Shown here in pieces: positions 15,475-60,720 of a stretch of DNA of 60,720 bases. The notes below the pieces were generated by a model. It saw only the letters and a list, made by a program, of their open reading frames with translations. It was not told the DNA's origin and made no database searches. A program made the position numbers and the translations under genes. The stretch comes from Gemmatimonadota bacterium (GTDB taxonomy: Bacteria > Gemmatimonadota > Gemmatimonadetes > Gemmatimonadales > GWC2-71-9). The stretch spans positions 1 to 60,720 of the forward strand of contig JADFIT010000004.1 in NCBI GenBank assembly GCA_022566515.1, given 5' to 3'. Position 1 is the stretch's first letter. The number at the start of each line of letters is the position of its first letter.

Positions 15475-15478
15475 CTGA

Positions 15479-16633: not shown

Positions 16634-16654
16634 AGAGGTTAGGAGAGCAATCTT

Positions 16655-17848: not shown

Positions 17849-17855
17849 GCGCTAG

Positions 17856-17980
17856 ATAAGGAAATACTGCCACGGATTGATCTTTTGAGCACGGATTTAT
17901 TCGGGAAGGGCCCTGTTTGCAGGCTCTTTCACGGAACCATCCGTGTCCAAAGAAGATCATCCGTGGCAGTATTCCCTTAT
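17856..17980. repeat. Imperfect palindrome of about 125 bp (REP/MITE-like) between convergent pilC and lysAC
   Basis: Left arm ATAAGGAAATACTGCCACGGAT..GATCTT..CACGGAT matches the reverse complement of right arm ATCCGTG..AAGATC.ATCCGTGGCAGTATTCCCTTAT; an inner hairpin lies between them. Confidence 0.8.
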
Positions 17981-18003
17981 ATGTGGCAGTCGTTCCTTAC
18001 ATA

Positions 18004-20595: not shown

Positions 20596-20658
20596 AGCGG
20601 AGGAAGATATCGTGGGTGAGCATTCGCTGCGAGACACGCACGGGGAGTGGGGAGTTTC

Positions 20659-20765
20659 TCAAAGTCCCAACCAGTAATTCACCTTTACGCTGAAGATGTT
20701 GTCCGCCACCGCGTCGCCGAACAGCGAGTCAAATTCCCGCAGGACATCGAAACTCGCGTTTCGAA
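20659..20765 (-). pseudogene. Orphan 3' gene remnant resembling an outer-membrane protein C-terminus (DUF5916-like)
   Basis: Reads ..RNASFDVLREFDSLFGDAVADNIFSVKVNYWLGL*. Further upstream the frame is merely antisense to pilS. Family assignment is from recollection. Confidence 0.5.
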
Positions 20766-20812
20766 TCTGACCTACTGTTGCGTTTTGCGAGAGTGGCGCC
20801 AATACTGAGGCT

Positions 20813-28700: not shown

Positions 28701-30544
28701 GCCATCGTCGAGCGGCATTCGTCGCCGGTGTCGTCGCGTGCCTGGTGTTTGCCAATGCTTCGCGCAACGGATGGGCGGTCGACGACATCCCGGTAGTGCG
28801 GGACAACCCTGCGGCGCACTCGATCGGGGCGGCCTTGGATGCCGCCTTTTCCCCCTACCGGCCCGCGACTCTCGACGAGTCCTCGTCGGGTCTCTACCGG
28901 CCGGCTGCAGTCGTCTCGTACGCCGTGGATTGGACGGTGTCCGGCGGGCGACCGTGGTGGTTTCACGTCGTAAACGTGTTGCTGCACGGGCTCGTGACCG
29001 CCTTGGTTGTGGTGGTCGCCGGGGCGTGGCTCCTGCCGGTGGGGGCCTTGGGGGCGGGATTGCTGTTCGCCATACATCCGGTTCATGTCGAGGCCGTGGC
29101 AAACGTCGTGGGCCGGGCCGAGATCCTGGCAGCGTTGGGGTTGCTCACGGCGGTGCTGACGGCGCGCCGTTATCGCCGGGCCGCTCACAGAGGAACGGCT
29201 CGCCTGTGGTTCTTGGCGACGATGGCGGCGGTCGCGTTTGCCCTGCTTTCAAAAGAAAACGCCGTGGTTGCCGTGGTCTTCCTGGCGCTGGACCACTTGC
29301 TGGATGAGGAGCCTTCGCACCGGCCCATGGCAGAGTTGTACATCGCGGTGGTCGGTCTGACGGTGGGGTGGTTCTTCCTGTGGCGCGCCGTCGCCGGTGC
29401 GTACGTCACGGCAACCGTCGCCTTTAACTTCCGTGGCCTCTCGGCTGGCGGACGTATCGCCACGATGTTGCCGGTGCAATTGGACGTCGTCCGTCTGCTG
29501 ACTTGGCCGCTGCAACTCTCCCACGATTACAGCCCTCAGGTCGTTCCCCAGCGCACGGCGTTTGGTGTGCTGGCCCTGCTGGGGTTGATGACGTCGGGGG
29601 CTGTGCTGGTGCTTGGCGCCGCATGCGTGAGGCGGGCGCCGGCTATCGCCTTCGGGATTCTCGCCGCTGTGGCGATATATGCACCCACTTCGAACCTGGT
29701 GTTCGGTTCCGGCATCGCGTTGGCCGAGCGGAATCTGTATTTGGCTGTCCTAGCCCCGGCGCTCGTGGCGGGTTGGTTGACCCTATGTCCTCTATGTCTC
29801 CGGCACAGACCGGTGATGATCTTGGCGGCAGCCGCATTGGCGATGGTGTATGTGGGACGCACCGTAACGCGGACGCCGCTTTGGAGGGACACACAAACAG
29901 TCGTCATCGAGGGAGCGATTCAGCATCCCGAAAGCTACGCCACCCGAATTTGGGTTGGCGGCCTCAGCGCATTGGCGGGCCATTCCGCGAGCGCGCTGGC
30001 GGAATACTTGATAGCAGTCGAGTTGTTCGATCGCGATCCGCTGATCGCCATGGTCAGTGTTCCTCTGGCGCTCGCGATGGGTCGCCACCGGGTTGCCATC
30101 GATGAGGCACGACGGGCCTACGATCTAGACCCGGACCATCCGGCGTTCGTCGGCCTGCTGATTGACACCTACAGAGCGAGGGGCGACAGCGACTCCGCAA
30201 AGGCCGTGGCGCGCACCATGATAGCGGCGGCACCGCGGTCGCGTAGCCACGCGCAGATCTATTTGAATTTTCTCGAGGCCTACGGTGCCCCGGCATGGCA
30301 GGTGAGTTTGGCGCAATTGCGTCTCGACTGGCTCAACTTCCGGCTCCAGGCGGCGTCGCGCAGCATCGACTCGCTGCCCAACGTGATGGCGAGCCAAGTC
30401 CTGGATCAGGAATGGTGTCTCGAGTTGGAGACCTTGTGGCCCGGTATCCGCGCGCTGCGCCCATCCGTGGCCGACAGCTTGGCAGAATTAGTCGAATCGG
30501 CCCGCCTCCAGTGCGACCTGCCGGGAGATCCCGTCGATGGCTGA
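28688..30544 (+). CDS. TMTC-like GT-C membrane glycosyltransferase with TPR-like C-terminus (copy 2)
   Basis: NGWAVDD, LYRP, FHVVNVLLH, LFAIHPVHVEAVANVVGRAE, SKE, LSHDYS, AERNLYL. Confidence 0.82.
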   Translation: MSGLSHRRAAFVAGVVACLVFANASRNGWAVDDIPVVRDNPAAHSIGAALDAAFSPYRPATLDESSSGLYRPAAVVSYAVDWTVSGGRPWWFHVVNVLLHGLVTALVVVVAGAWLLPVGALGAGLLFAIHPVHVEAVANVVGRAEILAALGLLTAVLTARRYRRAAHRGTARLWFLATMAAVAFALLSKENAVVAVVFLALDHLLDEEPSHRPMAELYIAVVGLTVGWFFLWRAVAGAYVTATVAFNFRGLSAGGRIATMLPVQLDVVRLLTWPLQLSHDYSPQVVPQRTAFGVLALLGLMTSGAVLVLGAACVRRAPAIAFGILAAVAIYAPTSNLVFGSGIALAERNLYLAVLAPALVAGWLTLCPLCLRHRPVMILAAAALAMVYVGRTVTRTPLWRDTQTVVIEGAIQHPESYATRIWVGGLSALAGHSASALAEYLIAVELFDRDPLIAMVSVPLALAMGRHRVAIDEARRAYDLDPDHPAFVGLLIDTYRARGDSDSAKAVARTMIAAAPRSRSHAQIYLNFLEAYGAPAWQVSLAQLRLDWLNFRLQAASRSIDSLPNVMASQVLDQEWCLELETLWPGIRALRPSVADSLAELVESARLQCDLPGDPVDG

Positions 30545-30635
30545 GGGGTCCCCATGGACCAGCACCCGACAGGCTTAGAGATTAGATAACCTCCGAACGA
30601 AAGCCGAAGCTATGGCTGTGGCCGGCAGGGGTGGT

Positions 30636-30667
30636 ATTGCGAGTGTCCGCACGCCTTGCAAAATGAG
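30636..30667 (+). promoter_or_regulatory. Candidate PilR enhancer (UAS) upstream of pilin 1
   Basis: ATTGCG-N14-TTGCAAAATGAG, shared with the pilin 2 upstream region at nearly the same spacing. Confidence 0.55.
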
Positions 30668-30758
30668 TGCCGAGGATCACCTGGCGAGGGCGACTCCGCT
30701 CCGTTTGGCGCAGGCTAACCCTTTGTGGTAAAAGCGATTGCGGGGTTTTTGCTCAGCC

Positions 30759-30774
30759 GGGCACGGAGATTGCA
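30759..30774 (+). promoter_or_regulatory. Sigma54 (-24/-12) promoter of pilin 1
   Basis: GGGCACG-GAGA-TTGCA with exact GG-N10-GC spacing. Confidence 0.8.
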
Positions 30775-30853
30775 ATTGGGTCATTCACCGTTTCTGTTTT
30801 GAGCTAGCAGATAGTTTGGTTTTCGAGGTCTTGCCCCCTAAGGAGGAAGTTTC

Positions 30854-31231
30854 ATGTTGAATCGTAAGGGTTTCACCCTGATCGAGCTGCTGATCGTCGT
30901 GGTGATCATCGGTATTCTGGCCGCCATCGCGATCCCGAAGTTCTCCAACACCAAAGAGAAGGCCTATATCGCGGCCATGAAGTCGGATCTTCGCAATCTG
31001 GTAACCGCGCAGGAATCGTATTTCGCCGACACAGACCTGTATGGTGCTGTGGCTAACTTGGCGACCTACTACAATGCCTCTGCCGGTGTAACGGTTGTGG
31101 CGACCCCGACTGCGGGAATCTCCCACAGGGCTACCGCGACCCACAGCGGCACCATTCAGACGTGCGCCATCTACATCAACGAAGCCTTCGCAGCTCCTGC
31201 GACGTCCGAAGGCGCACCTGGCTGCGCGTAA
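30854..31231 (+). CDS. pilA: Type IVa major pilin
   Basis: Class III signal MLNRKG|FTLIELL, C-terminal Cys pair, strong RBS AGGAGG, own promoter and terminator. Confidence 0.93.
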   Translation: MLNRKGFTLIELLIVVVIIGILAAIAIPKFSNTKEKAYIAAMKSDLRNLVTAQESYFADTDLYGAVANLATYYNASAGVTVVATPTAGISHRATATHSGTIQTCAIYINEAFAAPATSEGAPGCA

Positions 31232-31263
31232 TGGCTGACTAGGAGGAGAGGAGTTGGTTCTTG

Positions 31264-31300
31264 GAGGCGGTGCGGGTTCAAATCTGCACCGCCTCTTTCT
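31264..31300 (+). terminator. Intrinsic terminator after pilin 1
   Basis: GAGGCGGTGC..GCACCGCCTC stem followed by TTTCT. Confidence 0.75.
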
Positions 31301-31400
31301 CCTCATTCCAGAGTCTCTATGTCGCCTGCCGCGATGGACTCGCAGCACTTTGGCAAATTCTCCGTTTCAACCTCTTCCCCCCTAGCCGCAAGCGCACCCC

Positions 31401-33374
31401 GTGAGTGAAGCCTTCGCGTCAATTCTCTGGCGCGTTATCGGTCTCGCCGTAATCCTTTTTTCCATCTTGCCAATAGCCGGATGGGTCGGGGCCCCAGACT
31501 CGGGACCGATCTGGCGGCCGAACATGAGCGCGTGGCTCATTGGGTGTTTCGTGGTTGCCGTGGTCGGGTGTTTGGCTGGGCGCTTGGGTGGAAAGGTCCG
31601 GGTCGAGGCGCCGCGGATTCCCGACTCGGTCTACAAGTTGGCTCCCCCCCTACTCGCTGTAGTGCTCGCTGGTTTGTCCGCTCTTGCGATGCAAGACGCC
31701 TTCGCGGGCAACCCGCACCTCATAGACGAAATGGCCCAGCTCTTTCAAGGCAAAGTGTTCGCCAGCGGCCGGCTCGCCGCACCAGTTCCAAGCCCGCCGG
31801 ACTTCTTTTTGATTACGCAAACTTTTGTGGTGGGCGATGGCTGGGTTTCGCAGTATCCACCGGGTCAGGCTCTACTATTTGCACTTGGGTTCAACCTGCA
31901 CGCAGAGTGGCTGGTGAATCCACTGCTGGGTGGTGTGGGGGTGTTGCTGGTCTTCTCCATCGCCAGTGGCCTTTATGACCGTACCACCGGTCTCGTCGCT
32001 GCTCTGCTTTGGGCGGGTTCTTCTTGGGTGCTGTTCATGTCAGCCACGTACATGAATCACGTGGGTGCCACGACATTCGCACTGGCCGCATGGGCCTCTA
32101 TATGGTGCCCGAAAGAACTCAAACGATGGCACCTTGTGGGGGCCGGATTCTTTCTTGCTGCCGCAGCAGCAACAAGGCCGCTGGACGCAGTTGCCGCTTC
32201 TCTGCCCATCTGTGTGTGGCTGCTGACTCGGCGCCGTATGACTGCGATCGGCTGGGTAGCAGTCGGCACGGTGCCCGTGATGGCGGCCTGGGGTTTCATG
32301 AATTGGAAACTCTTCGGCAACCCGGCCACCATGGGATACTCCGCCCTGTACGGCTCGGAGTTGAGCCTGGGATTTCACACCGATCCCTGGGGACGGGAAT
32401 ACACACCGCTGGTGGCATTGAGCAACATGGCAGTAGCCGTGCGACGACTCAGCATTCACCTCTTCGAGTGGCCGATTCCCGCCCTGCTGCCGGTCGCGGC
32501 ATGGGGTCTGCTCGCGTCCAAGAAAAGGCAGGGCGACTTGGTGCTGGCCTTGGGGGTCATGGCCGGCCCGGCGCTGTATTTCTTTTACTGGCATTCGGGT
32601 TTTTATCCCGGCCCTCGCTTCTACTACATCTCCGCGCCTTTTCTGGTCATGGCGACGGCGCGGGCCTGGGCCTGGGCCTGGGGGCATTGGGGTGGGAGCA
32701 GGCGCTTCGGATTGCGATGGGATGTCTCCCTCACCGCCATGGCCGCCGTGGTGTTGTTGTGGGGTTGGGTGAGCCTCTCTCCAGGGCGTTGGGACTTTTA
32801 CAAGTCGCAACTGGTCTCACTCAAGCTCCACCCCGAGCGCCAGCTGAAAGAACAGAGTGTTAGCCAGGCCCTGGTATTGGTTCCGGAAAGCTGGGGAAGC
32901 CGAATAGTCACCAGTCTATGGGGCCTTGGGGCCTCACCCCCGCTGGTAGAAAGGGCGTACAACAGGATCGACGCATGCGATCTTCACACGTTCGTGCAAC
33001 GGGCACGTCAATCGGGGATCGTCGGTCCGGCGCTTTCAGATAGTCTGCGTGAGCTTTTGGCGGCGAGTGATCTTCAAGCCAGCCCTCTGATGGACTGGCC
33101 GGATCCCTCCCTCCGTTTGCGCCAGCGCGCTACGATGCCGGAAAGCTGTAAGATCGAGCTGGAAAGGGACCTTCAGGGATTTACCTTGTACGGTCACCTG
33201 GGCTGGCGGAACCGCATCGGGCTGGATTCGGGACTCGTCTTCGCCCGGGACCTCTATGAGAGAAACACCGAACTCCTGGCCCGGTACGAAGGGTGGCAGG
33301 TCTGGCGCTATGCCCCTCCGCTTGACGATCCGGAGGGAACCCCGGTACTCACCCTAATTAGGGATCGGAGCTGA
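31401..33374 (+). CDS. GT-C fold membrane glycosyltransferase (ArnT/PMT-like) between the two pilins
   Basis: HLIDEMAQLFQ, SQYPPG, MSATYMNH, TRPLD, GPRFY; more than 10 TM helices. Confidence 0.7.
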   Translation: MSEAFASILWRVIGLAVILFSILPIAGWVGAPDSGPIWRPNMSAWLIGCFVVAVVGCLAGRLGGKVRVEAPRIPDSVYKLAPPLLAVVLAGLSALAMQDAFAGNPHLIDEMAQLFQGKVFASGRLAAPVPSPPDFFLITQTFVVGDGWVSQYPPGQALLFALGFNLHAEWLVNPLLGGVGVLLVFSIASGLYDRTTGLVAALLWAGSSWVLFMSATYMNHVGATTFALAAWASIWCPKELKRWHLVGAGFFLAAAAATRPLDAVAASLPICVWLLTRRRMTAIGWVAVGTVPVMAAWGFMNWKLFGNPATMGYSALYGSELSLGFHTDPWGREYTPLVALSNMAVAVRRLSIHLFEWPIPALLPVAAWGLLASKKRQGDLVLALGVMAGPALYFFYWHSGFYPGPRFYYISAPFLVMATARAWAWAWGHWGGSRRFGLRWDVSLTAMAAVVLLWGWVSLSPGRWDFYKSQLVSLKLHPERQLKEQSVSQALVLVPESWGSRIVTSLWGLGASPPLVERAYNRIDACDLHTFVQRARQSGIVGPALSDSLRELLAASDLQASPLMDWPDPSLRLRQRATMPESCKIELERDLQGFTLYGHLGWRNRIGLDSGLVFARDLYERNTELLARYEGWQVWRYAPPLDDPEGTPVLTLIRDRS

Positions 33375-38431: not shown

Positions 38432-39049
38432 ATGGCGTTGCCACAAAAGGAGAGGATCCAGCTCCTGGGGCTCTTGATCGCGGTGGGGGTGGGTATGCCG
38501 ATCGCGGCTTGGGTCTATTGGCGCACTCCAAAAGCAGAGGAAGTACGGCAGATCCAGTTCCAGATCGACTCGCTGCAGGCCAGGATCGATACGGCGCGGG
38601 CGGACCTGGAGCGGGGCACGGTCGCGTCGCTCAGAGCAACGGTTGCGCAGTACGGGGAGGCTCTCAGCGTGATGCGCGAACTCGTTCCGGCCCAACACGA
38701 GGTGGTGGGTCTCATCGACAGCGTGGCGAGCCGGGCTCAGCTCCGTGGTGTGGCGCTCCTCAGTATCAACTCGTTGCCCAATGAAACCGAGCCTCCGTTT
38801 CAGGTGATTCGCAATCAGGTCACCGTGTTGGGTCCCTATGACGAGATCGGCGAGTTCTTATCCGACATAGCTTCCCTTCGGCGAGTGATGGTACCCTACA
38901 GCGTGTCGCTGCAGGTAGCTACTGCCAACGACCTTCGGGGCCTGTTGGTCGAGGAGGGGCGCACCTACCTGCGGTCCACATTCAATATCAGAACTTTTGT
39001 GAAGGCTTCCGCCGACACACTCGGAGACGGTAGCGGTGGGACGACCTAA
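38432..39049 (+). CDS. pilO: Type IV pilus assembly protein PilO
   Basis: TM plus coiled coil, LVP..EV..L, GPYDEIGEFL..IASL.R; operon position. Confidence 0.9.
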   Translation: MALPQKERIQLLGLLIAVGVGMPIAAWVYWRTPKAEEVRQIQFQIDSLQARIDTARADLERGTVASLRATVAQYGEALSVMRELVPAQHEVVGLIDSVASRAQLRGVALLSINSLPNETEPPFQVIRNQVTVLGPYDEIGEFLSDIASLRRVMVPYSVSLQVATANDLRGLLVEEGRTYLRSTFNIRTFVKASADTLGDGSGGTT

Positions 39050-39512
39050 TATGTTTGGTTTGCCTGGCTTGATTGCCCTTGTCGTCGCGTGCGGCGGTGG
39101 AGATATAGAGCCCCCGCCGGGTGCAGGCGAGATTCCCGGGTCCTTAGCCGAGGATACGACACAGGCTGTCGAAGCCCCGCGGATCGAGCTCTCCCGTGAA
39201 GTGTTTGCCTATCGTGGAGGCAGTCGCGATCCGTTTCGCTCTCTTGTGGAGAGCGGGTTCGAGCTCCGCCCGTTTATCGAGGACCTCCGTTTGACCTCGG
39301 TCATTTACGACGAACGGTATCCCGAAAGAAGTGTGGCCGTTCTCCAGGACATGAGCCAGGCAATACGGTACAACGTCCGCGTGGACGATGAATTCGGCCG
39401 GCTTCGGGTGGCCGCAATACGCAAATACGAAGTGGTGCTCACAATTGAAGAGTTTGGCGTACCGCGTCAGGTAGTGATATCGCTCCGGCGTCGCCAGGAG
39501 GGTAATCCATGA
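39036..39512 (+). CDS. pilP: PilP-like lipoprotein
   Basis: Lipobox VVAC, RDPF motif; lies between pilO and pilQ. Confidence 0.75.
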   Translation: MGRPNMFGLPGLIALVVACGGGDIEPPPGAGEIPGSLAEDTTQAVEAPRIELSREVFAYRGGSRDPFRSLVESGFELRPFIEDLRLTSVIYDERYPERSVAVLQDMSQAIRYNVRVDDEFGRLRVAAIRKYEVVLTIEEFGVPRQVVISLRRRQEGNP

Positions 39513-41320
39513 AGCACTCTTGGGTATTAGCTGCAGTTGGACTGGGTATGGCGACACCGCTGCCCGTAGCCAACGGTCCTGGTGATGTGACCGCGATCAG
39601 TGTCTTGCCGAGTTTGGGAAGCGTGGTTGTAGTGGTGGACGTGCAGGGAGCAGTCAACGTGAAAGATTTCACGCTCAGCAATCCCGCGCGGCTGGTGGTG
39701 GACGTCGAGGGGGCGAGACTCAAAATACCGGGCGTGTTGTACGACGGCGCGATTCGGGGCGGGATAGTGCACATCCGTTATGCGCAGTTCCGGCCGGACG
39801 TGGTGCGCATAGTCCTCGAGTTGGAATCCCTGAGGGATTATCAGCTCGAGTACGTGGACGACACGATCCGCATCTCCTTCAACACCGATCACCAGTTTTC
39901 CGCATGGTCGTCTGGAACGTTGCCACGGACGCCGGTTGAGACCGCCAGTGTGTTGCCGGTGAGCGATGGCTTCGCTGAAACACGTGCGGTGTTGCAGCAA
40001 TCCGTCCAAGATCGAATCACGGTAACGTGGGACTCGGCCAGTATCGCGGACGTCATGGCTGCGTTCGCCGAGTTCAGCGGGCGTTCGATTCTCCTGGGCC
40101 GTAACGTGAACGCGGTGATTTGGGCGGAGATCAAGGATCAGCCGTGGGATGTAGCCCTCAGGGAGATTCTCGACATCAACGGTCTCCAGGCTCAAGAGGA
40201 CGAGCAAACGGGCATGATCCGGATTGTAAACCCCATCGAGGTTGCGGCACGGGATTCGCTCCAGCCAAGGCAAACCGTGATCATGTCGCTGAACTTCAAG
40301 CGGGCGTCGGGCATCGCTGATGTCCTTAGGCAGACAATTGGAGGGCGCGGAACGGTCGTCGCTGACTCGTTGACGAACCAGATTATCATAACGGACATCC
40401 AGAGCCGGCTCGAAGAAGACACGATACTGGTTAGGCAGCTGGATATTCCAACGCCGCAAGTTGTTATTCATGCCAAGCTGATCTTTGTCGACCGAACGGA
40501 CATTGAACAGTTAGGGGTACGCTATGACCTCGGGAACGACCAACAGTTCTTCAACAGGTTGGTGCAGCGGCCGGATCCCAGCACGCTGGTTGGCGTAGAC
40601 ACCGACGGCGACGGCATAAACGATGCTCTCATTGCCGAAGAGACATTCCCCAAAAATATCAACATCATCGACCTCGGCGGTAATTCGCTCGCGGCCATAG
40701 GAAATGCAGGCGCCCAGCTCCCGAGTTCTGCACTCGAATTAATTTTTTCGACTGCGATTGGGAATTTCAATCTCACCGCGTTCGTTGAAGCGTTGCAAGA
40801 AGTGCAGTTGGCCGACTTGCAGGCGGAGCCTCTCATCACGACGGCGGATAACACCCAAGCGGAGATTCTCGTTGGCGAGCGCACGCCGATCCGCGTAATC
40901 GACGCTGGTACTCAGGGTGCAGTAGGTGGGCCGGTCGCGCCGGTGGCAACCATCCGTTTCGAGGAGACCGGGATTCGACTCCGTGTCACACCGCACGTCA
41001 CCAATGCCGGGCAGGTGTTGATGCGGATCCACGTTGAAAACTCCTCGATTCGCGAAGCGCCGTCTGACATCGGCTTCACCCTGCAAACACAAGAGACCGA
41101 CAACGAAATTCTGGTCAACGACGGCGAAACCATGGTCATTGCCGGACTTACTGTGACTCAAGTCACGGTGGCCAAGAGCGGAATCCCTTTTCTTGTAGAC
41201 CTACCGATACTGGGACGGATCTTCGGGTTCACCTCGCGACGTGAGCAACGGCGCGATCTGCTGATTCTGGTGACGCCCACTATCGTGTATAACCAGGCTA
41301 CCGAACTAATTGGCCGGTAG
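39509..41320 (+). CDS. pilQ: Type IV pilus secretin PilQ with AMIN domain
   Basis: NPARLVVD..VRIVLEL (AMIN), DQPWDVAL, LDIPTPQVVI, GIPFLVDLPILGRIF, LLILVTP. Confidence 0.94.
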   Translation: MKHSWVLAAVGLGMATPLPVANGPGDVTAISVLPSLGSVVVVVDVQGAVNVKDFTLSNPARLVVDVEGARLKIPGVLYDGAIRGGIVHIRYAQFRPDVVRIVLELESLRDYQLEYVDDTIRISFNTDHQFSAWSSGTLPRTPVETASVLPVSDGFAETRAVLQQSVQDRITVTWDSASIADVMAAFAEFSGRSILLGRNVNAVIWAEIKDQPWDVALREILDINGLQAQEDEQTGMIRIVNPIEVAARDSLQPRQTVIMSLNFKRASGIADVLRQTIGGRGTVVADSLTNQIIITDIQSRLEEDTILVRQLDIPTPQVVIHAKLIFVDRTDIEQLGVRYDLGNDQQFFNRLVQRPDPSTLVGVDTDGDGINDALIAEETFPKNINIIDLGGNSLAAIGNAGAQLPSSALELIFSTAIGNFNLTAFVEALQEVQLADLQAEPLITTADNTQAEILVGERTPIRVIDAGTQGAVGGPVAPVATIRFEETGIRLRVTPHVTNAGQVLMRIHVENSSIREAPSDIGFTLQTQETDNEILVNDGETMVIAGLTVTQVTVAKSGIPFLVDLPILGRIFGFTSRREQRRDLLILVTPTIVYNQATELIGR

Positions 41321-54024: not shown

Positions 54025-55128
54025 ATGAGTGGGAAACGAACACCGTTCTACAATCTTCACGTCTCGTTGAACGCGAAGATGGCAGACTTCGTCGGCTTCC
54101 AAATGCCGATTCAGTATCCCACCGGTATTACGAAGGAACACGAGATCGTGCGCACCGGTGTCGGCGTGTTCGATGTGTCGCATATGGGAGAGTTCGAGAT
54201 CACCGGTCCGGACCGTAACGCCTTCGCCAACCGGGTAACGTGCAATGACGTCGGCGCGCTGAGGGACGGACAGGCGCAGTACTCCGCCTTGCTCGCCGAA
54301 AACGGAACTTTTATTGATGACTGCCTCGTCTATCGGTTTGATGACAAGATCATGATGGTCGTGAACGCAGCCAATATCGAAAAGGATTGGAAATTGCTCG
54401 TTCTGAAAAAGGCTGGCATCAACGTTCGGCTGCGCAACATCAGCGATGACGTTGCGTTGCTTGCCGTCCAAGGTCCCAAGAGCGAAGAGCTGGTTCAATC
54501 CCTGACCAAGATGAACCTGTCGCGCATCAAGTACTACCACTTTGAAACAGGCAAGGTTGGTGGCGTGGACTGCTTCATCTCCCGCACCGGTTACACGGGT
54601 GAAGACGGCTTCGAGCTGTACTTTCGACCCGCAGATGCCGAGGTGATGGGAAATACGCTGATCGGCCACGGCCGGGGGGAGCCGGTAGGGCTTGGCGCCA
54701 GAGATTCCCTGCGACTGGAAGCCGGCTATCCGCTCTACGGGAACGACATCGACGATACGGTCAACCCCTATGAGGCCGGCCTCGGGTGGATCGTGAAGCT
54801 GGATAAAGGCGCTCCGTTTACGGGCCGCACCGCCCTCGAAGCGGTGAAACGCGGAGACGTGAAGCGCAAGCTCGTCGGATTCAAGGTGCCCGAGAAAGGC
54901 TCCATCCCTCGCCATGGCTACGACGTGTACCTCAAGGGTACCAAGGTAGATACAGTCCGTAGCGGTGGCTTCGGACCCTCGGTGGGTGGAGCCATCGGTA
55001 CGACCTACTTACCGACCCATTCCGTCGATCCCGGAACCGAGATCGAAATCGATTGCCGCGGCACCAAGGTCAAAGCCGAGGTGGTGAAGATGCCGTTCTA
55101 CAAGGGCGGGAGTGTCAAGAAAAGCTAA
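54025..55128 (+). CDS. gcvT: Glycine cleavage aminomethyltransferase
   Basis: FDVSHMG, SRTGYTGEDGFE, ARDSLRLEAG.PLYG. Confidence 0.97.
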   Translation: MSGKRTPFYNLHVSLNAKMADFVGFQMPIQYPTGITKEHEIVRTGVGVFDVSHMGEFEITGPDRNAFANRVTCNDVGALRDGQAQYSALLAENGTFIDDCLVYRFDDKIMMVVNAANIEKDWKLLVLKKAGINVRLRNISDDVALLAVQGPKSEELVQSLTKMNLSRIKYYHFETGKVGGVDCFISRTGYTGEDGFELYFRPADAEVMGNTLIGHGRGEPVGLGARDSLRLEAGYPLYGNDIDDTVNPYEAGLGWIVKLDKGAPFTGRTALEAVKRGDVKRKLVGFKVPEKGSIPRHGYDVYLKGTKVDTVRSGGFGPSVGGAIGTTYLPTHSVDPGTEIEIDCRGTKVKAEVVKMPFYKGGSVKKS

Positions 55129-55152
55129 CTCGGCGCGAAGAGCGGGGAAGTA

Positions 55153-55638
55153 ATGGCGGTGCGACTTGCCGTACTCACCATCTCCGACCTCGGCGCGGCT
55201 GGGGAACGGGCAGATACGTCGGGAGATTCGATCGTTGCGTGGGCCGGCGAGAACGGTTTTGAGGTGGCCGCAAGGGAACTGGTTCCCGACGAAAGCGACC
55301 GCATCGCCGGACATCTGTGCCGCTGGGCGGACGATGGAACCGCCGATCTCATAATCACAACCGGCGGCACCGGGTTCGGCCCGAGAGATGTCACGCCCGA
55401 GGCCACTCGGGCCGTGATAGATAGAGACGCGCCCGGAATTTCCGAAGCCATCCGGGCCGCCGGCTACGCCAAAAACCCGCGCGCCGCCTTGTCGCGCGGC
55501 GTCGCCGGTACGAGAGGCGCCGCGCTCATCGTCAACTTGCCGGGCAGCCCGGCCGGAGTGAGAGACGGTCTCGCGGTTCTCGGCCCCCTCGTCGAGCACG
55601 CCGTGAAACTGCTCACCAGCCAGCCAACGGATCACTGA
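55153..55638 (+). CDS. MogA/MoaB family molybdenum cofactor biosynthesis protein
   Basis: LTISD, DTSG, TTGGTG..PRDVTPEAT, LSR, NLPGSP. Confidence 0.92.
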   Translation: MAVRLAVLTISDLGAAGERADTSGDSIVAWAGENGFEVAARELVPDESDRIAGHLCRWADDGTADLIITTGGTGFGPRDVTPEATRAVIDRDAPGISEAIRAAGYAKNPRAALSRGVAGTRGAALIVNLPGSPAGVRDGLAVLGPLVEHAVKLLTSQPTDH

Positions 55639-57179
55639 TGGCCGATACGATTCTCCTCACGATGGACGATCTCGAAACAGCGGTGCGTGTCAACGCCACC
55701 TTCGAGGCGGACGGCGAGAAGACCGTGCTGGTCTCGGCCATGGACGACATACCCGCCGCCGTGAAGGGCGCAAATCCCGACATCATCATCCTGACGGGCG
55801 CGCTGCACGAACGGCCGGCGCGGGCGTTGATCCAGTTGGCAAGAGTCCGCTCTACATCCACACTAGGCCTGCTCGAGGAGACGGAGCCCGATGCTCGGAA
55901 GATAGCGTTGGAACTGGGCCTCACCGGTTGGCTCGTCAAACCGGTGGACGGGCAACACGTCATGGCAACCGCCCGACGCCTGATGGAGCGGCGGCGCCTT
56001 CAGGAACGCACCGGCATCTTGGGAGAGAGTCCCGCCGTGCAGGAAATGCTCGTCAAGATCGAGCAAATGGCACCCGTGTCATCCACCGTGCTCATCGAGG
56101 GAGAATCGGGTACGGGCAAGGAACTCGCCGCGCACGCACTCCATGAACTCTCCAATAGAAGGGATCAGCCCTTCATCGCCGTGAACTGCTCCGCGTTGCC
56201 GGAGACCTTGCTCGAGTCCGAGCTTTTCGGACATGAAAAAGGTGCGTTCACGGGTGCGGCAGAACGCCGGCTCGGACGTTTCGAGCTCGCCCATAGGGGT
56301 ACGCTCTTCCTCGATGAAGTGGGCGACATGTCTCCCGCGACGCAAGTGAAACTGCTGCGCGTGTTGGAGAACCATTCCTTCTTCCGTGTAGGGGGGTCTG
56401 AGGCGATCCACGCCGATGTCCGCGTCGTGGTAGCGACGAACCGCAGGCTCAAAGAAGTGGTTGCGATGGGTGAGTTTCGCGAAGACCTGTTCTTCCGCAT
56501 CAACGTGCTGTCGATCTATCTGCCGCCGCTACGGGAGCGTCGCGGCGACATCCCCCTTCTGGTGCGTCACTTCGTCAAAGAGTTCAGCGAAGAACATAAT
56601 AGGCCCTTCCGTGGCATCACTCCCGAGGCAATGCAGTTGCTCGTCAGCGCGCACTGGCCCGGTAACGTGCGTCAGTTGCGCAATCTGATCGAGTCGATGG
56701 TCGTGCTTGCCCCCGGACAAGAGATTCGGGCCACGGACATCCCGTCGGACATACGCGAAGAGGGCACGAGATTGCTACCGATGCGCATGCCTGGTGGGGC
56801 ACCGAAGACGGCGGGTAGGGAATTGGAGTTCATCTTTCGCAGCCTCATGGACCTGAAGTTGAAGATGGAGGAACTCAGTCGCCGAATGGACCAGCATGCG
56901 TCACGTGGTGTCGAGGCGATCGAGGTGGGAGGTGGCAGCCCGTTTCGGTCGGCAGAGCCCGTCGCCGCCATCGACCTCTCAGGCTTTCCCCAAGCCGACG
57001 AGACAGACTTGGCCGAACCGGTGCTGTATCAACCCGGAATGACGATGGCAGATGCGGAAAAGGCCACCATTGAGGGGGCCCTGCGTGAGAACGCCGGAAA
57101 CCGCCGCAAAGCCGCCGAAACGCTGGGGATAGGCGAACGGACCCTTTACAGGAAAATCAAGGAGTACGGGTTGGCGTGA
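55638..57179 (+). CDS. Sigma54-dependent activator with degenerate (pseudo) receiver domain
   Basis: GESGTGKE, GAFTGA, LDEVG, WPGNVR, Fis HTH. Receiver keeps DD and KP but has Thr at the phospho-Asp position (PDIIILT). Confidence 0.9.
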   Translation: MADTILLTMDDLETAVRVNATFEADGEKTVLVSAMDDIPAAVKGANPDIIILTGALHERPARALIQLARVRSTSTLGLLEETEPDARKIALELGLTGWLVKPVDGQHVMATARRLMERRRLQERTGILGESPAVQEMLVKIEQMAPVSSTVLIEGESGTGKELAAHALHELSNRRDQPFIAVNCSALPETLLESELFGHEKGAFTGAAERRLGRFELAHRGTLFLDEVGDMSPATQVKLLRVLENHSFFRVGGSEAIHADVRVVVATNRRLKEVVAMGEFREDLFFRINVLSIYLPPLRERRGDIPLLVRHFVKEFSEEHNRPFRGITPEAMQLLVSAHWPGNVRQLRNLIESMVVLAPGQEIRATDIPSDIREEGTRLLPMRMPGGAPKTAGRELEFIFRSLMDLKLKMEELSRRMDQHASRGVEAIEVGGGSPFRSAEPVAAIDLSGFPQADETDLAEPVLYQPGMTMADAEKATIEGALRENAGNRRKAAETLGIGERTLYRKIKEYGLA

Positions 57180-57195
57180 GAGGCGAAGAAACCCA

Positions 57196-57224
57196 TTGAC
57201 ACTCGGGGTGGGCCACACCATGAT
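57196..57224 (+). promoter_or_regulatory. Putative sigma70 promoter upstream of the diguanylate cyclase
   Basis: TTGACA-N17-CATGAT. Confidence 0.5.
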
Positions 57225-57240
57225 TGGCGCAGCCCTTGCA
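57225..57240 (+). promoter_or_regulatory. Sigma54 promoter upstream of the diguanylate cyclase
   Basis: TGGCGCA-GCCC-TTGCA with exact GG-N10-GC spacing. Confidence 0.65.
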
Positions 57241-57277
57241 GCAATGGTGATCGCCGCTACAGCAGCGGAATAAACGC

Positions 57278-58957
57278 GTGCAGTTCGAAATCAACTCGGA
57301 TAAATGTGTGGCCTGCCTCGCGTGTGTCCGGGCGTGTCCGGCCGGGGCGGTGGCGGTGGAGGAAACGGACGTTGAGATCATCGACGACGCGTGCATTCAA
57401 TGCGGGGCGTGCGTTCCCGCGTGTCCGCACGACGCCATTGACGTTCGGGGAGACTTTAGCCGAGCGCTGGAGTTGGCCGTCGCGGGCGACGCCATACTGA
57501 TTCTGAGCGTCGAGGCCGAGATCCACTTCTACCCCCACACGCCGGAACAGATGGTGAACGCGTGCTATCGCGCGGGTTTCGGTATTGTCTACCGCGGTGT
57601 CTTGGGCGACGAGTTGGTGGCGGAAGGCTATCAGAGGCTTTGGGAAAAGGGTGGTTGGGGAACGATGATCCGGTCCAGTTGTCCGGTCGTCGTCGAAACC
57701 GTTCGGCGCGAATATCCCGACCTCGTTCCCTATTTGGCTCCTGTTCAAACCCCTGTGCAGGCAGAGGCCGGTTACATTCGGGCTAAACACGGGTCCGATG
57801 TGAAGGTGGTCTACGCCGGCGTCTGTATCACCGAGGGGGGTGAGGCGGTGGATGCGGCCATTACGCTGCATGAACTCGATGAACTGCTTCGCACCCGCCG
57901 GGTGGACGTGGCGAAGGAGGCACCGTTCTTCGACCGGATCCCCGAAGAGCGGAGGCGCCACATCAGTGCGGCGGGTGGGTTGCCCCTGCGGGTGCTGCAG
58001 GAGGAGCGCCACTCCAGCCGCCGATTCCGGAAGCTGCGGGGGCTGGGCCATCTGCCCATGATCGCTCGGGCGGTCACGGTGGACGAGATCGACCTGGGGT
58101 TTGTGGACCTGCTGCCTTGTGAGGGGTGTCTGGACCACCCCCTCCTGGGGCCAGCCGAGGAGTTGTACTACCGGAGGAAGGTGCAGGCGTCTCTGGAGCC
58201 ACCCCGGAGCCCGGAGCCGGTTTTGGAGCCCGACATCGAGGTGGACGTACGGGCCAAGTTCGAAGCGGCGGTCAACGGGCGGGAGAGCGTTGGTGAGGAG
58301 CAGATCGCCGCTGTCATCCAGCGGATCGGGACTGCTCCAGGTGGGCACCATTGGGACTGTGGCGCCTGTGGATTCGGCACCTGCCGCGAGTTCGCCGTGT
58401 CTCAGGTCAAGGGGCGGGCCGACCTCCGGCAATGCCCGCCATATCAGGAGCGAAAGGCTCGGCAAGCCCAGGAGGAGGCCGCGGTGGACGAGCTGACGGG
58501 GCTCGCCACTTTCCGAGTGTTGCGGGACAGTCTGCAGCAGGAGGTGGCGCGAGCGCGCCGGACTGAGGTCTCGTTTGCCGTGCTGTTCATTGATCTGGAC
58601 AACTTCAAAAACGTCAACGACCGGTACGGCCATGAAGAGGGCAACGAGGTGCTGAAGTTGGCGGCCGGGGTCATGGGGAGGACGGTGCGGGGTACTGATA
58701 TGGCGGCCCGCTATGGCGGTGATGAGTTCGTAGTCTTGCTCATCGGGACCGACCTGCATGGCGCCCAGAAGGTGGGGGAGCAGATCCGCCATGCGGTCGA
58801 GATGGCCGGCACGCGAGCCGGATATCCGGCGGGGATGGTGACGGTGTCGATCGGGGCTGCCCAATTCGACCTCAAGGACGACGACCCAGAGGTTCTGCAG
58901 CTTGCGGACAGGTCTTTGTACGAAGCCAAGGGTTCGGGCGGCAACCGGGTTATCTGA
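57278..58957 (+). CDS. Diguanylate cyclase fused to 2x[4Fe-4S] ferredoxin, [FeFe]-hydrogenase-like and Cys-rich FeS domains
   Basis: CVACLACVRACP, CIQCGACVPACP; RSSCPVV, GVC, PCEGC; DCGACGFGTC..CP; DELTGL, DLDNFK.VND.YGH, RGTD, RYGGDEF. Confidence 0.9.
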   Translation: MQFEINSDKCVACLACVRACPAGAVAVEETDVEIIDDACIQCGACVPACPHDAIDVRGDFSRALELAVAGDAILILSVEAEIHFYPHTPEQMVNACYRAGFGIVYRGVLGDELVAEGYQRLWEKGGWGTMIRSSCPVVVETVRREYPDLVPYLAPVQTPVQAEAGYIRAKHGSDVKVVYAGVCITEGGEAVDAAITLHELDELLRTRRVDVAKEAPFFDRIPEERRRHISAAGGLPLRVLQEERHSSRRFRKLRGLGHLPMIARAVTVDEIDLGFVDLLPCEGCLDHPLLGPAEELYYRRKVQASLEPPRSPEPVLEPDIEVDVRAKFEAAVNGRESVGEEQIAAVIQRIGTAPGGHHWDCGACGFGTCREFAVSQVKGRADLRQCPPYQERKARQAQEEAAVDELTGLATFRVLRDSLQQEVARARRTEVSFAVLFIDLDNFKNVNDRYGHEEGNEVLKLAAGVMGRTVRGTDMAARYGGDEFVVLLIGTDLHGAQKVGEQIRHAVEMAGTRAGYPAGMVTVSIGAAQFDLKDDDPEVLQLADRSLYEAKGSGGNRVI

Positions 58958-58997
58958 CCAATTGAACGATGGAAGCATCCAGCCAAGTGGGAGAGAC

Positions 58998-59747
58998 GTG
59001 AAAGCCAAGAAAGACGATCCCGAGCAGGCATCGGCAGGCGAAGCGCAGGTTCCCCTTCGCAAGGCTCAGAGCGAGGCTCAGGCCGATCCTTGGGGGATAA
59101 GGCGGGCGGAGGTGTTGCTGGCCAGCCTCACGGGGGTGCTTTCTGCCAGGGTCGTGACGACACCGACCGGAGAGATTACGGAGGTCCACATACTGACGGA
59201 GGCCGGCCTCACGCCGAAGCAGACGGTGCGCAACGTCGAGAGCGCTCTGCTGGCCCAGCTCGGGATCAAGCTCGATCACCGGAAGATCAGCGTGGCGCAG
59301 ACTGCCGATGTCCTGCCCCTCGAGGCGATGGAAGACCGGGCGGTTCTGGAGAGGGCTAGAAGGCGGGGGGTCGTGTTCCGTAGGGTGGAGGTGACTCCGA
59401 CGAGCACTCAGCATAGGGTGACCGTCACCGTCACCATGGAGCGGGACGGGGAAGAGCTGGTGGCCCAGCAGGAGGCTGGGGACGCCGCCAAGATGCGCCT
59501 GGTGGCGGCCGCCCGGGCGTCTGTATCGATCTTGGACATCATGGTTGCCGGCGGTACCATCGACCTGGCCGGGGCTCAGCTCGTCGAGGCCTTCGACACC
59601 CGTTTGGCGTTCGTTGGGATCCACGTGCTGCAAGGCCGTGATGCCAGGCTACATGTGGGGACGTGTGAGGTGAAGGGGAGCGTGGAGCAGGCAGGGGCCC
59701 TGGCCGTCCTCGACGCGACCAACCGCTGGCTCACCTCGATGCTGTAG
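58998..59747 (+). CDS. Hypothetical cytoplasmic protein
   Basis: Clean ORF with GGGAGAG RBS before GTG 58998; motif-like EVHIL..PKQTVRNVESAL..LDHRKISVAQ and AVLDATNR. Confidence 0.8.
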   Translation: MKAKKDDPEQASAGEAQVPLRKAQSEAQADPWGIRRAEVLLASLTGVLSARVVTTPTGEITEVHILTEAGLTPKQTVRNVESALLAQLGIKLDHRKISVAQTADVLPLEAMEDRAVLERARRRGVVFRRVEVTPTSTQHRVTVTVTMERDGEELVAQQEAGDAAKMRLVAAARASVSILDIMVAGGTIDLAGAQLVEAFDTRLAFVGIHVLQGRDARLHVGTCEVKGSVEQAGALAVLDATNRWLTSML

Positions 59748-59764
59748 CGAAGCTGGACAGCGGT

Positions 59765-59793
59765 TTGACAAAAACGCCATAACTTCCCACATT
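59765..59793 (+). promoter_or_regulatory. Putative sigma70 promoter for the leader / small peptide / sensor unit
   Basis: TTGACA-N17-CACATT. Confidence 0.45.
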
Positions 59794-59796
59794 GGT

Positions 59797-59822
59797 CACC
59801 CCTTACGCGAGGGGTGTTTTCT
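59797..59822 (+). terminator. Intrinsic terminator after the hypothetical gene
   Basis: CACCCCT-tacgcg-AGGGGTG followed by TTTTCT. Confidence 0.55.
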
Positions 59823-59838
59823 AACTACAAGAGTCACA

Positions 59839-60048
59839 GCGTCTTAGCCATCTTCGGGAATGGTTGCGGCGCCTTCAGCGTCTTTACCCTTCTTGAGAAC
59901 AAGGATACTTAAGGAAAAGGGGGTGCCCCGGTTCGGAGTTACCAGCAATAGCGTAGCGGAGCGAATCCAGCTGTAGGAGCGAAGCGTCAGGGTGTGCCGT
60001 AGCGAGGCATGCCACTTCTCGAAACGCCTAGAGGCATGTGAGGAGGTG
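59839..60048 (+). ncRNA. Candidate structured 5' leader RNA (family unknown)
   Basis: Several consecutive stems, including a cUUCGg hairpin and an anti-Shine-Dalgarno pairing. Confidence 0.3.
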
Positions 60049-60054
60049 ACGCTC

Positions 60055-60114
60055 GTGGATTCGATCATTGAGTTCTTGTGCCGTTTGTTTTTGCACGGTA
60101 CCGTTTCCTGGTAA
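60055..60114 (+). CDS. Putative 19-aa peptide MDSIIEFLCRLFLHGTVSW
   Basis: AGGAGGT 7 nt upstream of GTG; TAA at 60112-14; too short for the supplied ORF track. Confidence 0.6.
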   Translation: MDSIIEFLCRLFLHGTVSW

Positions 60115-60147
60115 GCTTCACCGGGGTTTTCTCCCTCTCCCCAAAAC

Positions 60148-60720
60148 GTGAAAATCCGGCCGCCGAGCATCAATTTCTACGTCTTCGCGATGTGTGGTAT
60201 TGCAGCATTCCTGTTGCTGCAAGCCGAGTGGCTGGTGTCGGGAGAACTGTTAAGCGCAGCTGCAACGGTATTGCTCATTGCGGTGGTCTCTGAGGCGGGA
60301 TCAGTTCGACTTGGCCTTGGCACCACCACGAGTTCAATCGCTTTCATTCCATTCTTCGCCGCCATAGTGTTGGTGGGCCCGGCCTGGGCGATGGCTGTTG
60401 GTGGTTTGACGCTATTCATTTCTAGTTTCCTGTTCAAACGAAAGCCCCTCGTGAAGGTGGCGTTCAATACTGCCAAGGAGGTTGTCGCAGTTGGTGCCAG
60501 CGGGGGCATCTACGTATTGCTCGGGGGTGTTCCGTCGCTGGGTGAATTCGCGCCGGCGATCCCTGCGTTCGCTGCGGCGGCGTTGATCTACTTCCCGCTC
60601 GACCAAGGCCTCCCGGCTATTGCAATTGCCCTCAGCACGAAAACGCGGCTGCGGGAAGCTTGGGGTCGGCTGGCTACTGGTCATCAGCTTTTGGATCTGG
60701 GCGCCAGCGCTGTAGCGTTG
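60148..60720 (+). CDS. Polytopic membrane sensor N-terminus (MASE9-like; possibly an HD-GYP or GGDEF protein), truncated by the window edge
   Basis: Open frame from GTG 60148 to the end: ..SSIAFIPFFAAIVLVGP..KRKPLVKVAFNTA..IYVLLGG..; at least 5 TM helices; output domain not in the window. Confidence 0.7.
   Translation, partial: MKIRPPSINFYVFAMCGIAAFLLLQAEWLVSGELLSAAATVLLIAVVSEAGSVRLGLGTTTSSIAFIPFFAAIVLVGPAWAMAVGGLTLFISSFLFKRKPLVKVAFNTAKEVVAVGASGGIYVLLGGVPSLGEFAPAIPAFAAAALIYFPLDQGLPAIAIALSTKTRLREAWGRLATGHQLLDLGASAVAL

Follow-up and report, generated by a model that had tools for sequence, protein, structure and literature searches.

The DNA analysed here is a contig of 60,720 nucleotides (nt) from a Gemmatimonadota bacterium (JADFIT010000004.1 of GenBank assembly GCA_022566515.1), referred to below, at its full length, as the window. 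It is the entire contig C60 of a genome, G000, which comprises 3.59 Mb in 241 contigs and is 95% complete. The end of the window carries a cluster of genes predicted to make and to destroy the second messenger cyclic dimeric guanosine monophosphate (c-di-GMP), and our main subject is a structured RNA leader, with an embedded small open reading frame (ORF), that stands before the phosphodiesterase gene of this cluster. A first-pass annotation had read the last 5 kb as an undescribed c-di-GMP circuit of six co-oriented elements, namely an activator, an iron-sulphur (Fe-S) cyclase, an unknown protein (hereafter unk), an RNA leader, a micropeptide and a membrane sensor. All six exist on the plus strand; the five coding elements are listed here, with lengths in amino acids (aa), and the parts of the leader further below.

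55638..57179, plus strand: sigma54 enhancer-binding protein (the activator), 513 aa, with a pseudo-receiver, an AAA+ domain and a Fis-type helix-turn-helix (Pfam).
57278..58957, plus strand: Fe-S diguanylate cyclase, 559 aa (Pfam and NCBIfam).
58998..59747, plus strand: unk, 249 aa, disordered at the N-terminus, followed by a ferredoxin-like domain (34-101, alpha-beta-beta-alpha-beta) and by one resembling the regulatory domain of LeuA/citramalate synthase (108-248) (AlphaFold2, Foldseek and VIA).
60055..60114, plus strand: small ORF with a GTG start, 19 codons and a stop, encoding the peptide MDSIIEFLCRLFLHGTVSW (conservation).
60148..60720, plus strand: MASE9-like membrane N-terminus of an HD-GYP phosphodiesterase, cut by the contig end and continuing at positions 2-1129 of contig C149 of G000 (Pfam and homologous contigs).

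The last of these genes runs off the contig, and the first-pass annotation had guessed that it ends in an HD-GYP domain. Specifically, positions 1-268 of C149 are 92% identical to window positions 60453-60720, and the sequence then continues in frame into an HD_5 domain (E 3.7e-38) with the motifs LLHDLGK and HHEAFGGRGYP, this being the sole MASE9-type match among the seven HD_5 matches in G000. In addition, a complete genome of the same genus (G003) contains an intact HD-GYP gene of 487 aa, 90-93% identical to both pieces and with the ~1100-aa convergent gene behind it, as on C149. From the 268-nt overlap, the in-frame HD_5 domain, the intact gene in G003 and the shared downstream gene, we conclude that C149 is the continuation of C60, and that the guess was right; the contig break probably arose from strain variation within the bin. 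The membrane domain scores 17.7 bits against MASE9 in the window fragment and 21.7 bits in the G003 orthologue, for a cut-off of 24.3 bits, which the orthologue at locus L016 passes with 27.1 bits. From its domains, the membrane HD-GYP enzyme is a predicted phosphodiesterase that would destroy c-di-GMP.

The cyclase, which is predicted to make c-di-GMP, combines two Fer4 [4Fe-4S] motifs, a Fe_hyd_lg_C domain, the four-Cys 'FeS' domain PF04060 and a GGDEF domain (PF00990, E 5.2e-39); genome-wide, a profile search of G000 gave 14 GGDEF, seven HD_5 and three EAL matches. The Cys residues of the ferredoxin motifs and of PF04060, the RYGGDEF signature and the RxxD I-site (R471/D474) are invariant in all 13 aligned cyclase sequences. 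These invariant Fe-S Cys motifs, together with the intact GGDEF and RxxD, make redox sensing plausible, and the enzyme is, judging from its motifs, likely to respond to redox state or O2. Of the redox-driven cyclase originally proposed, therefore, the Fe-S cyclase itself stands, while the redox drive is a plausible property.

The window cyclase also has hydrogenase-like Cys residues (SSCP, GVC and PCEGC, at about residues 135, 183, 281 and 284). A true [FeFe]-hydrogenase was considered and rejected, as the TIGR04105 score is 102.6 bits against a cut-off of 450, SSCP replaces TSCCP, and about half of the cyclase orthologues have other residues (Asp, Asn, Ser and so on) in place of all four Cys. 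With the H-cluster Cys lost in about half of the orthologues and HydG not found in the 95% complete G000, we regard this region as an Fe-S sensor domain and not a hydrogenase; two subtypes of the sensor, with and without the hydrogenase-like Cys, appear to exist. At locus L015 (G003:C1) the cyclase matches as three pieces (residues 1-48, 48-185 and 187-559), which suggests frameshifts or sequencing indels.

For unk, no Pfam or NCBIfam match was obtained, and no sequence relative among solved structures was better than E 0.23. An AlphaFold2 model built from 19 sequences (mean predicted local distance difference test score 83.2, predicted template-modelling score 0.52) gives residues 108-248 the topology alpha-(beta-beta-beta-alpha)x2. 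This C-domain aligns with 3f6g_B over 110 of 115 residues (VIA Z 9.2, root-mean-square deviation 3.2), with 3fig_A at Z 8.0, and, in Foldseek, with 1sr9_A at E 1.1e-6. As modelled, it has the fold of the LeuA/citramalate synthase regulatory domain; unk gave no LeuA_dimer (PF08502) profile match with E up to 10. For the N-domain, VIA returned ferredoxin-like domains of a generic kind (CDF-transporter C-terminal domains, ANL C-subdomains, EscJ/PrgK), with Z values of 7-9, a range that is common. Matches in the ESM Atlas were to Gemmatimonadota 'hypothetical protein' clusters only, and the family comprises 2599 representative clusters at E up to 0.001 in a 50%-identity library. The C-domain also has paralogues standing alone, several per genome across the relatives, whose open frames measure about 150-200 aa; in G000 they include C170:11141-11731 and C221:5784-6227, the latter matching LeuA_dimer at E 0.0094 (16.3 bits, below the 24.9 cut-off).

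The order of these genes was counted in the 80 best related public Gemmatimonadales loci. The cyclase lies directly upstream of unk in all 66 testable loci and the HD-GYP gene downstream of unk in all 44, while the activator is found at most 2.6 kb away in 52 of 60. With the leader detected in 77 of 86 sources, the proposed succession of cyclase, unk, leader with small ORF and HD-GYP is therefore kept. Twenty loci were fetched: ten carry activator, cyclase, unk and HD-GYP in order, three carry the first three genes up to a contig end, five (L027 and L031-L034, mostly of families f2 and f3) have activator, unk and HD-GYP without the cyclase, and two are lone second copies of unk. HD-GYP follows unk in 15 of the 17 with enough downstream sequence. 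unk itself is present in 58 of 61 related genomes, a tally that includes the unpublished genome G022 (35/36 in family f1, 11/12 in f2 and 11/12 in f3).

A more direct link between cyclase and unk came from a search limited to longer unk-containing proteins, which gave five matches. In two of them, P0003 (820 aa) and P0004 (757 aa), the complete cyclase is cleanly joined in frame to unk, and P0002 and P0005 resemble gene calls that are frame-shifted or chimeric. Four proteins of 820-822 aa, on one contig each, make up the P0003 cluster, so that the fusion is found on at least five contigs from two sources, in one lineage. The existence of this fusion argues for unk and the cyclase acting together as proteins. 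A complex prediction with the full cyclase and unk residues 30-249 gave scores of 0.01, 0.36 and 0.01, which speak neither for nor against binding. The functional linkage, which had originally rested on adjacency only, thus has a firmer footing for cyclase and unk, whereas the activator and PilB, the pilus ATPase proposed as an output, remain unlinked.

Against a single module it must be weighed that unrelated neighbours are equally fixed. gcvT (54025-55128, plus strand) and a MoaB-like gene (55153-55638, plus strand) upstream, and the convergent gene of about 1100 aa downstream, are kept in place just as well, the last in 15 of 21 sequences searched (the window slice included). An ancient, conserved 600-kb region of high strand bias that holds core genes has been described in Gemmatimonadota (Tomasch et al., PMC11237797, in the part of the article available). 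With the neighbours equally conserved, and the more so if the window lies in that region, order alone is weak functional evidence. The six elements might thus not form one circuit, their order reflecting a rearrangement-poor region in which only leader, small ORF and HD-GYP are coupled; the unconserved sigma54 site (see below) and the f2 and f3 loci that keep the remainder without the cyclase would fit. We hold this to be unlikely, in view of the fusions, the cyclase-to-unk spacer of just 44-166 nt, the leader that at locus L112 begins within 7 nt of unk, and the improbable coincidence of a cyclase and a phosphodiesterase for one messenger side by side. In conclusion, the core of the cluster is probably a Gemmatimonadales-wide module for c-di-GMP turnover, as judged from gene content and order.

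As for the ~1100-aa convergent protein, it is encoded in G000 at C149:1140-4454 (minus strand) and also stands next to the HD-GYP gene at L015, L016 and other loci; its N-terminus resembles, by eye, a winged-helix regulator of the BTAD/SARP type.

The spacer between unk and HD-GYP measures 400 nt in the window and contains a structured element of about 230-260 nt, in which we distinguish the following parts (SD, Shine-Dalgarno sequence; P0 to P3, helices).

59797..59822, plus strand: terminator-like hairpin with a T-run, after unk (terminator scan).
59913..59931, plus strand: P0 5′ strand, purine-rich (covariation, duplex energies and minimum free energy fold).
59949..59989, plus strand: direct (U/G)AGCG(G)A repeats, the last overlapping the P1 5′ strand AGCGUCA at 59983-59989 (alignment).
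59990..60013, plus strand: hairpin P2 with the conserved loop (A/G)UAGCGA (compensatory changes in five of seven pairs).
60014..60053, plus strand: anti-SD ACUUCUC at 60014-60020 and variable hairpin P3 at 60026-60035 (covariation and fold).
Within 60014..60053, plus strand: SD GAGGAGGU at 60040-60047 and P1 3′ strand UGACGCU at 60047-60053 (covariation and fold).
60121..60140, plus strand: P0 3′ strand, pyrimidine-rich, ending 7 nt before the HD-GYP start codon (covariation, duplex energies and fold).

RNAalifold on the spacer alignment recovered P1 (AGCGUC:GACGCU), the hairpin P2 and an anti-SD:SD helix (ACUUCC:GGAGGU) around P3. Covariation was then assessed on a MAFFT alignment of 49 full leaders that had not been fitted to any model. 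In P0, P1, P2 and the anti-SD helix, which comprise 32 pairs, 91.8% of the positions were paired, compared with 43-55% when the partner strand was slid, and 19 of the 32 pairs showed changes on both sides; none of 500 shuffles reached the observed values. P1 was paired in 98.6% and the anti-SD helix in 91.8% of cases, and 11 of the 13 P0 pairs were compensatory; the model-fitted alignment agreed. Cognate P0 duplexes are also more stable than non-cognate ones over 55 loci (mean -35.95 versus -29.86 kcal/mol). The minimum free energy fold of the window leader (-100.5 kcal/mol, z = -3.03) reproduces P0, P1, P2, the anti-SD helix and P3. Enclosed by P0 are three formally single-stranded (U/G)AGCGGA repeats and a small variable hairpin; the repeat consensus, AGCGGAG-N3-AGCGGA...GAGCGGAGCGUC, is nearly invariant and lies between P0 and P1. 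In this architecture, P1 and the anti-SD helix are predicted to sequester the ribosome-binding site and the start codon of the small ORF.

A covariance model found the leader just 3′ of unk in each of the 77 sources mentioned above. It is present in 39 of 61 genomes (29/36 in f1, 8/12 in f3 and 1/12 in f2), with a single match in 37 of the 39; of the two additional matches, that in G013 is a fragment at the end of a contig and that in G060 belongs to another unk locus. Candidate copies in other gene contexts were followed up and dropped, G011:C157 (the only match of its genome) and G013:C30 being the same type of locus cut by contig ends. By eye, a divergent leader with a small ORF was also recognised at the distant f2 locus L034. 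A search of Rfam 15, including the c-di-GMP-I and c-di-GMP-II riboswitches (GEMM-I and GEMM-II), over 55000-60720 on both strands gave no match at E up to 1. The terminator-like hairpin at 59797-59822 is not significant alone, five such sites being seen in the region for 4.8 expected; of the upstream sequences inspected, those of the closest relatives L035 and L036 alone have a stretch like the extra 100 nt or so in which it lies.

The separate promoter that had been postulated for the leader was not found: no sigma54 or sigma70 pattern matched directly upstream in 70 upstream regions. At L112 only 7 nt separate the unk stop from the leader, so that co-transcription with unk is likely there. 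CsrA was considered as a ligand of the GGA-containing repeats and set aside, with no CsrA found in G000, which is weak evidence in a genome 95% complete.

The small ORF is preceded by a strong SD, GAGGAGGT, and starts 1-4 nt past the P1 3′ strand; its start codon was located in 70 of 75 full-length leader matches. The 57 complete homologous copies, which show conservation of the encoded peptide, have 9-35 codons, the commonest lengths being 27 (22 copies), 26 (11) and 24 (7), and in 49 of them a Trp is the last or penultimate residue. Among those of 27 aa, M1, L2, G19, E22, G23 and W26 are conserved, and the consensus reads roughly M-L-K-I-S-L/W-L-A...F-L-A-G-L-F-G-R-S-E-G-Q-T-W-x. The other two frames of 21 small-ORF sequences contain 40 and 11 stops.

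In most loci the stop of the small ORF is separated from the HD-GYP start by 32-47 nt of pyrimidine-rich sequence, which is the P0 3′ strand, and no SD is evident before the HD-GYP start. Read-through of the small-ORF stop into HD-GYP was considered, the two being in frame in the window, and was excluded by the random frame relation over 55 loci (20/18/17).

From the conserved genes, the covarying helices and the conserved small ORF, we infer that the small ORF is translated, that its translation is coupled to that of the phosphodiesterase, and that a trigger of some identity exists. The sequence of events we propose would be the following. A sigma70-type promoter would drive the Fe-S cyclase and unk. 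P0 would join the 5′ end of the leader to the pyrimidine-rich stretch just before the phosphodiesterase start, and in the closed fold both the small ORF and the MASE9-HD-GYP phosphodiesterase would stay untranslated. A signal would open P1 and the anti-SD helix, be it the nascent peptide or a factor or ligand that acts at the repeats and the loop of P2; the neighbouring unk, a small molecule and the nascent peptide are the candidate triggers. Ribosomes would then translate the small ORF, melting the upper part of P0 on termination, and would reinitiate, or be permitted to initiate, at the SD-less phosphodiesterase start 32-47 nt downstream in most loci. We consider it reasonably probable, from comparative sequence data, that translation of the HD-GYP phosphodiesterase is gated in this way, through leader and small ORF and separately from the cyclase.

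Several points weigh against this proposal. The peptide evolves fast, codon differences in the 27-aa group amounting to 3200 nonsynonymous and 1001 synonymous ones, so that constraint sits on few peptide positions, and the third-position excess is modest (2567/1924/2942 differences at codon positions 1/2/3). Eight of the 57 complete small ORFs lack the terminal Trp, some of them in assemblies with likely indels. An SD-less HD-GYP start is no proof of coupling, as other genes, for instance the cyclase, also start without an obvious SD. P0 might serve instead as a site for RNase III or as a stabiliser. With one locus per genome, no regulon helps to infer the ligand. Finally, the expression data consisted of assembled contigs from four marine-sediment metatranscriptome runs of two studies, and contigs cannot prove transcription, ends, strand or translation, DNA carry-over being possible. 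In these data, all 30 bins of 55000-60720 have cover in runs X3 and X6, and X7 and X8 leave parts of the cluster uncovered. A fold-back joint between opposite strands, 59962/60064, at the base of P1, recurs in three runs from the two studies; it could be a self-priming artefact of cDNA synthesis on a stable RNA hairpin, and gives a weak hint only.

As to the trigger, unk might act in trans, as a ligand-binding RNA-binder in the manner of TRAP or HutP. Bound to the repeats and to the loop of P2, it would free the P1 5′ strand and switch on translation of small ORF and phosphodiesterase. unk adjoins the leader at every leader locus (77 of 86 sources), a linkage that persists in cyclase-less families (L031-L033), although adjacency may simply reflect a single operon. 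The last repeat overlaps the P1 5′ strand, the C-domain fold is that of a small-molecule-binding regulatory domain, and many Arg, Lys and His residues of unk are invariant. Weaker fold matches include the nucleic-acid-binding beta-beta-beta-alpha modules of dsRBD, PUR and Rad52, but at Z values commonly seen, and unk has no sequence match to an RNA-binding family. The fusion, moreover, points to a partnership with the cyclase at the protein level. All together, we regard this role of unk as rather doubtful.

The same leader could alternatively be a new riboswitch, whose region of repeats and P2 loop would bind a small molecule and so open or close the SD helix; with c-di-GMP or some nucleotide related to it, the most attractive choice, this would provide direct feedback on synthesis of the phosphodiesterase. 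The highly conserved, formally single-stranded core flanked by covarying helices is typical of aptamers, the SD is sequestered as in an expression platform, and the position upstream of a c-di-GMP phosphodiesterase parallels that of GEMM riboswitches. We nevertheless judge a riboswitch improbable: Rfam, GEMM-I and GEMM-II included, gave no match at E up to 1, the leader occurs once per genome whereas most riboswitch classes control several operons, and tandem direct repeats look more like docking sites for a protein or ribosome than like a compact aptamer.

The first-pass annotation had itself favoured a peptide-controlled membrane enzyme, in which the free micropeptide binds the MASE9 domain and controls the enzyme while the RNA only tunes amounts. 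This is one option among others, and the RNA anatomy at least equally favours a regulatory upstream open reading frame (uORF). The length and several positions of the peptide are conserved, it is always encoded directly before the membrane enzyme, and 36 of 48 distinct peptides contain a hydrophobic 15-residue window (mean Kyte-Doolittle of at least 1.6). MASE9 has, in addition, been proposed to sense ligands within the membrane (bioRxiv 10.1101/2021.11.05.467447, from the available part of the preprint). The hydrophobic stretch is, however, short, with a median of two charged or His residues before the last seven positions, and the window's own peptide is among the least hydrophobic (1.31). 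The strongest conservation falls on the C-terminal E-G-x-x-W next to the stop. In arrest peptides, which act inside the ribosome, conservation is concentrated at just this end. A free micropeptide acting on the enzyme thus seems to us a poor prospect.

Going one step beyond the gated phosphodiesterase, the leader may be a new class of signal-sensing RNA for c-di-GMP homeostasis in Gemmatimonadota. The repeats and P2 loop would serve as receptor for a small molecule (c-di-GMP or a breakdown product) or for unk, which would then be a new ligand-gated RNA-binding regulator, and an E-G-x-x-W-stop arrest peptide would hold the long-range helix open. We put this forward tentatively, as possible rather than probable; if true, RNA, nascent peptide and protein would form three layers deciding on phosphodiesterase synthesis.

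A sigma54 site had been noted before the cyclase. The spacer between activator and cyclase contains two promoter-like features.

57196..57224, plus strand: sigma70-like promoter TTGACA-N17-CATGAT (10 of 12 consensus positions).
57225..57240, plus strand: sigma54-like TGGCGC-N5-TTGCA, TGGCGCAGCCCTTGCA (one mismatch to the consensus).

The sigma54-like sequence is indeed present, but sites with one mismatch are at chance level in the window (four, for 1.84 expected; 6 of 100 shuffles reach four). It overlaps the -10 region of the sigma70-like promoter and, among the 12 activator-cyclase spacers printed, is kept solely in L015, of the same genus. A loose sigma54 pattern matched this spacer in five of 14 loci, at non-homologous positions, and the site at 57225-57240 is probably due to chance. 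By eye, in contrast, TTGAC(A/T) is common to all 12 spacers, with an A/T-rich hexamer about 17-19 nt later; from this conservation, the cyclase is most likely read from the sigma70-type promoter, and its control by sigma54 is not supported. Sigma54 promoters elsewhere in the cluster were sought with the loose pattern in three spacers of 19 loci, giving scattered, non-homologous matches only, and none was found in the spacers between activator and unk of loci lacking the cyclase. Two more one-mismatch sigma54-like sites lie on opposite strands about 100 nt apart at window positions 30657-30774, in a spacer of about 30544-31401. At L031 and L032 (f3), where the cyclase is absent, an activator-unk spacer of about 340-390 nt remains, with a promoter-like TTGAC(A/T) motif just after the activator stop and then a conserved stretch, ctgacaacaacttag, that may be another leader.

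The activator has clear Sigma54_activat (PF00158, E 1.6e-69) and HTH_8 (E 6.7e-13) domains in Pfam, and the GAFTGA loop can be read in the translation of its AAA+ domain; rpoN is present in G000. Its N-terminus is receiver-like, matching receiver D2 of PleD at E 1.5e-4, but 19 of 19 orthologues have a Thr where the phosphorylatable Asp would be expected, so that we call it a pseudo-receiver. Its start codon overlaps the stop of the moaB-like gene by 1 nt, and no target of it is mapped. It is a conserved neighbour of the module, and its place in the circuit first drawn is not supported. The same applies to the MshEN-PilB output: the gene is real (13771-15474), but lies 40 kb away, behind housekeeping genes.

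The type IV pilus cluster to which this gene belongs extends over window positions 13771-23889 and 38432-41320 and encodes the MshEN-domain PilB, a PilT-like ATPase, PilC, PilO and the secretin PilQ, as well as a PilS-like kinase and a PilR-like sigma54 activator. Housekeeping genes lie between it and the c-di-GMP module.

Gemmatimonadota are widespread in soils and sediments and, to our knowledge, little work on c-di-GMP has been carried out in them. The conserved, and probably core, module described here brings together an Fe-S cyclase and a membrane HD-GYP enzyme in an understudied phylum, with two uncharacterised parts, the unk family and a structured RNA, absent from Rfam, in which a small ORF is embedded. 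The strong covariation, the clear helices and the simple predicted output make the leader mechanism directly testable. If the leader senses a ligand or protein, it would constitute a new post-transcriptional control point in second-messenger signalling and a new example of a uORF-coupled switch beyond the model phyla. No publication describing the cluster, the leader or the small ORF was found in a literature search that left supplementary files and most subscription journals outside; within it, we came across no description of the leader and small ORF, of the unk family or of the conserved succession of cyclase, unk, leader and HD-GYP. The kinds of protein domain are known already, as are SD sequestration and uORF coupling as a type of mechanism, and whether the sensing principle itself is new we consider possible but somewhat doubtful.

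Among known systems, group C sensory [FeFe]-hydrogenases of the HydS type share with the cyclase N-terminal ferredoxin clusters, an H-domain-like fold, a signalling output and one more four-Cys motif at the C-terminus; the cyclase differs in having SSCP for TSCCP, in the loss of the Cys residues in about half of the sequences, in that no HydG was found, and in an output that is GGDEF and not PAS/kinase. The phosphodiesterase resembles the MASE9-HD-GYP proteins TM1467 of T. maritima and HdgA of S. venezuelae in its multi-pass MASE9-type membrane domain and intact HD/GYP (bioRxiv 10.1101/2021.11.05.467447); the window copy stays below the MASE9 cut-off that L016 passes, and the available part of that preprint mentions no leader or small ORF for the known members.

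On the RNA side, GEMM-I and GEMM-II are likewise cis-acting RNAs ahead of genes for c-di-GMP turnover; the leader, in contrast, matches neither at E up to 1, has direct repeats, contains an ORF and is closed by a long-range helix, and its ligand binding is hypothetical. Tandem short purine-rich leader repeats beside the gene of a protein with a small-molecule-binding fold recall TRAP and HutP; unk is not homologous to these, the repeats number only three to four of 6-7 nt, and binding of the protein to the RNA is likewise hypothetical.

The closest parallels concern the logic of the switch. In the available parts of the respective reports, expression of PPE2 in M. tuberculosis depends on riboswitch-controlled uORF translation, mainly through termination-reinitiation (PMC11260477), and in a Salmonella Mg2+ transporter leader an intergenic small ORF unfolds a structure that inhibits translation of the next gene (PMC8092293). 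In the B12 leader of ppe2 (PMC11260477), as proposed here, a structure occludes the uORF start, downstream expression needs the uORF, and the next gene starts close behind the uORF stop; our leader has no relation to the cobalamin riboswitch (no Rfam match), and a helix of at least 13 bp encloses leader and small ORF. The Salmonella leader (PMC8092293) likewise sequesters a ribosome-binding region that uORF translation opens, in a different organism, sequence and gene class, with no proline- or Mg2+-related features seen in ours. In conclusion, the Salmonella and ppe2 leaders share their logic with a phosphodiesterase gated through leader and small ORF, and can be regarded as precedents for it.

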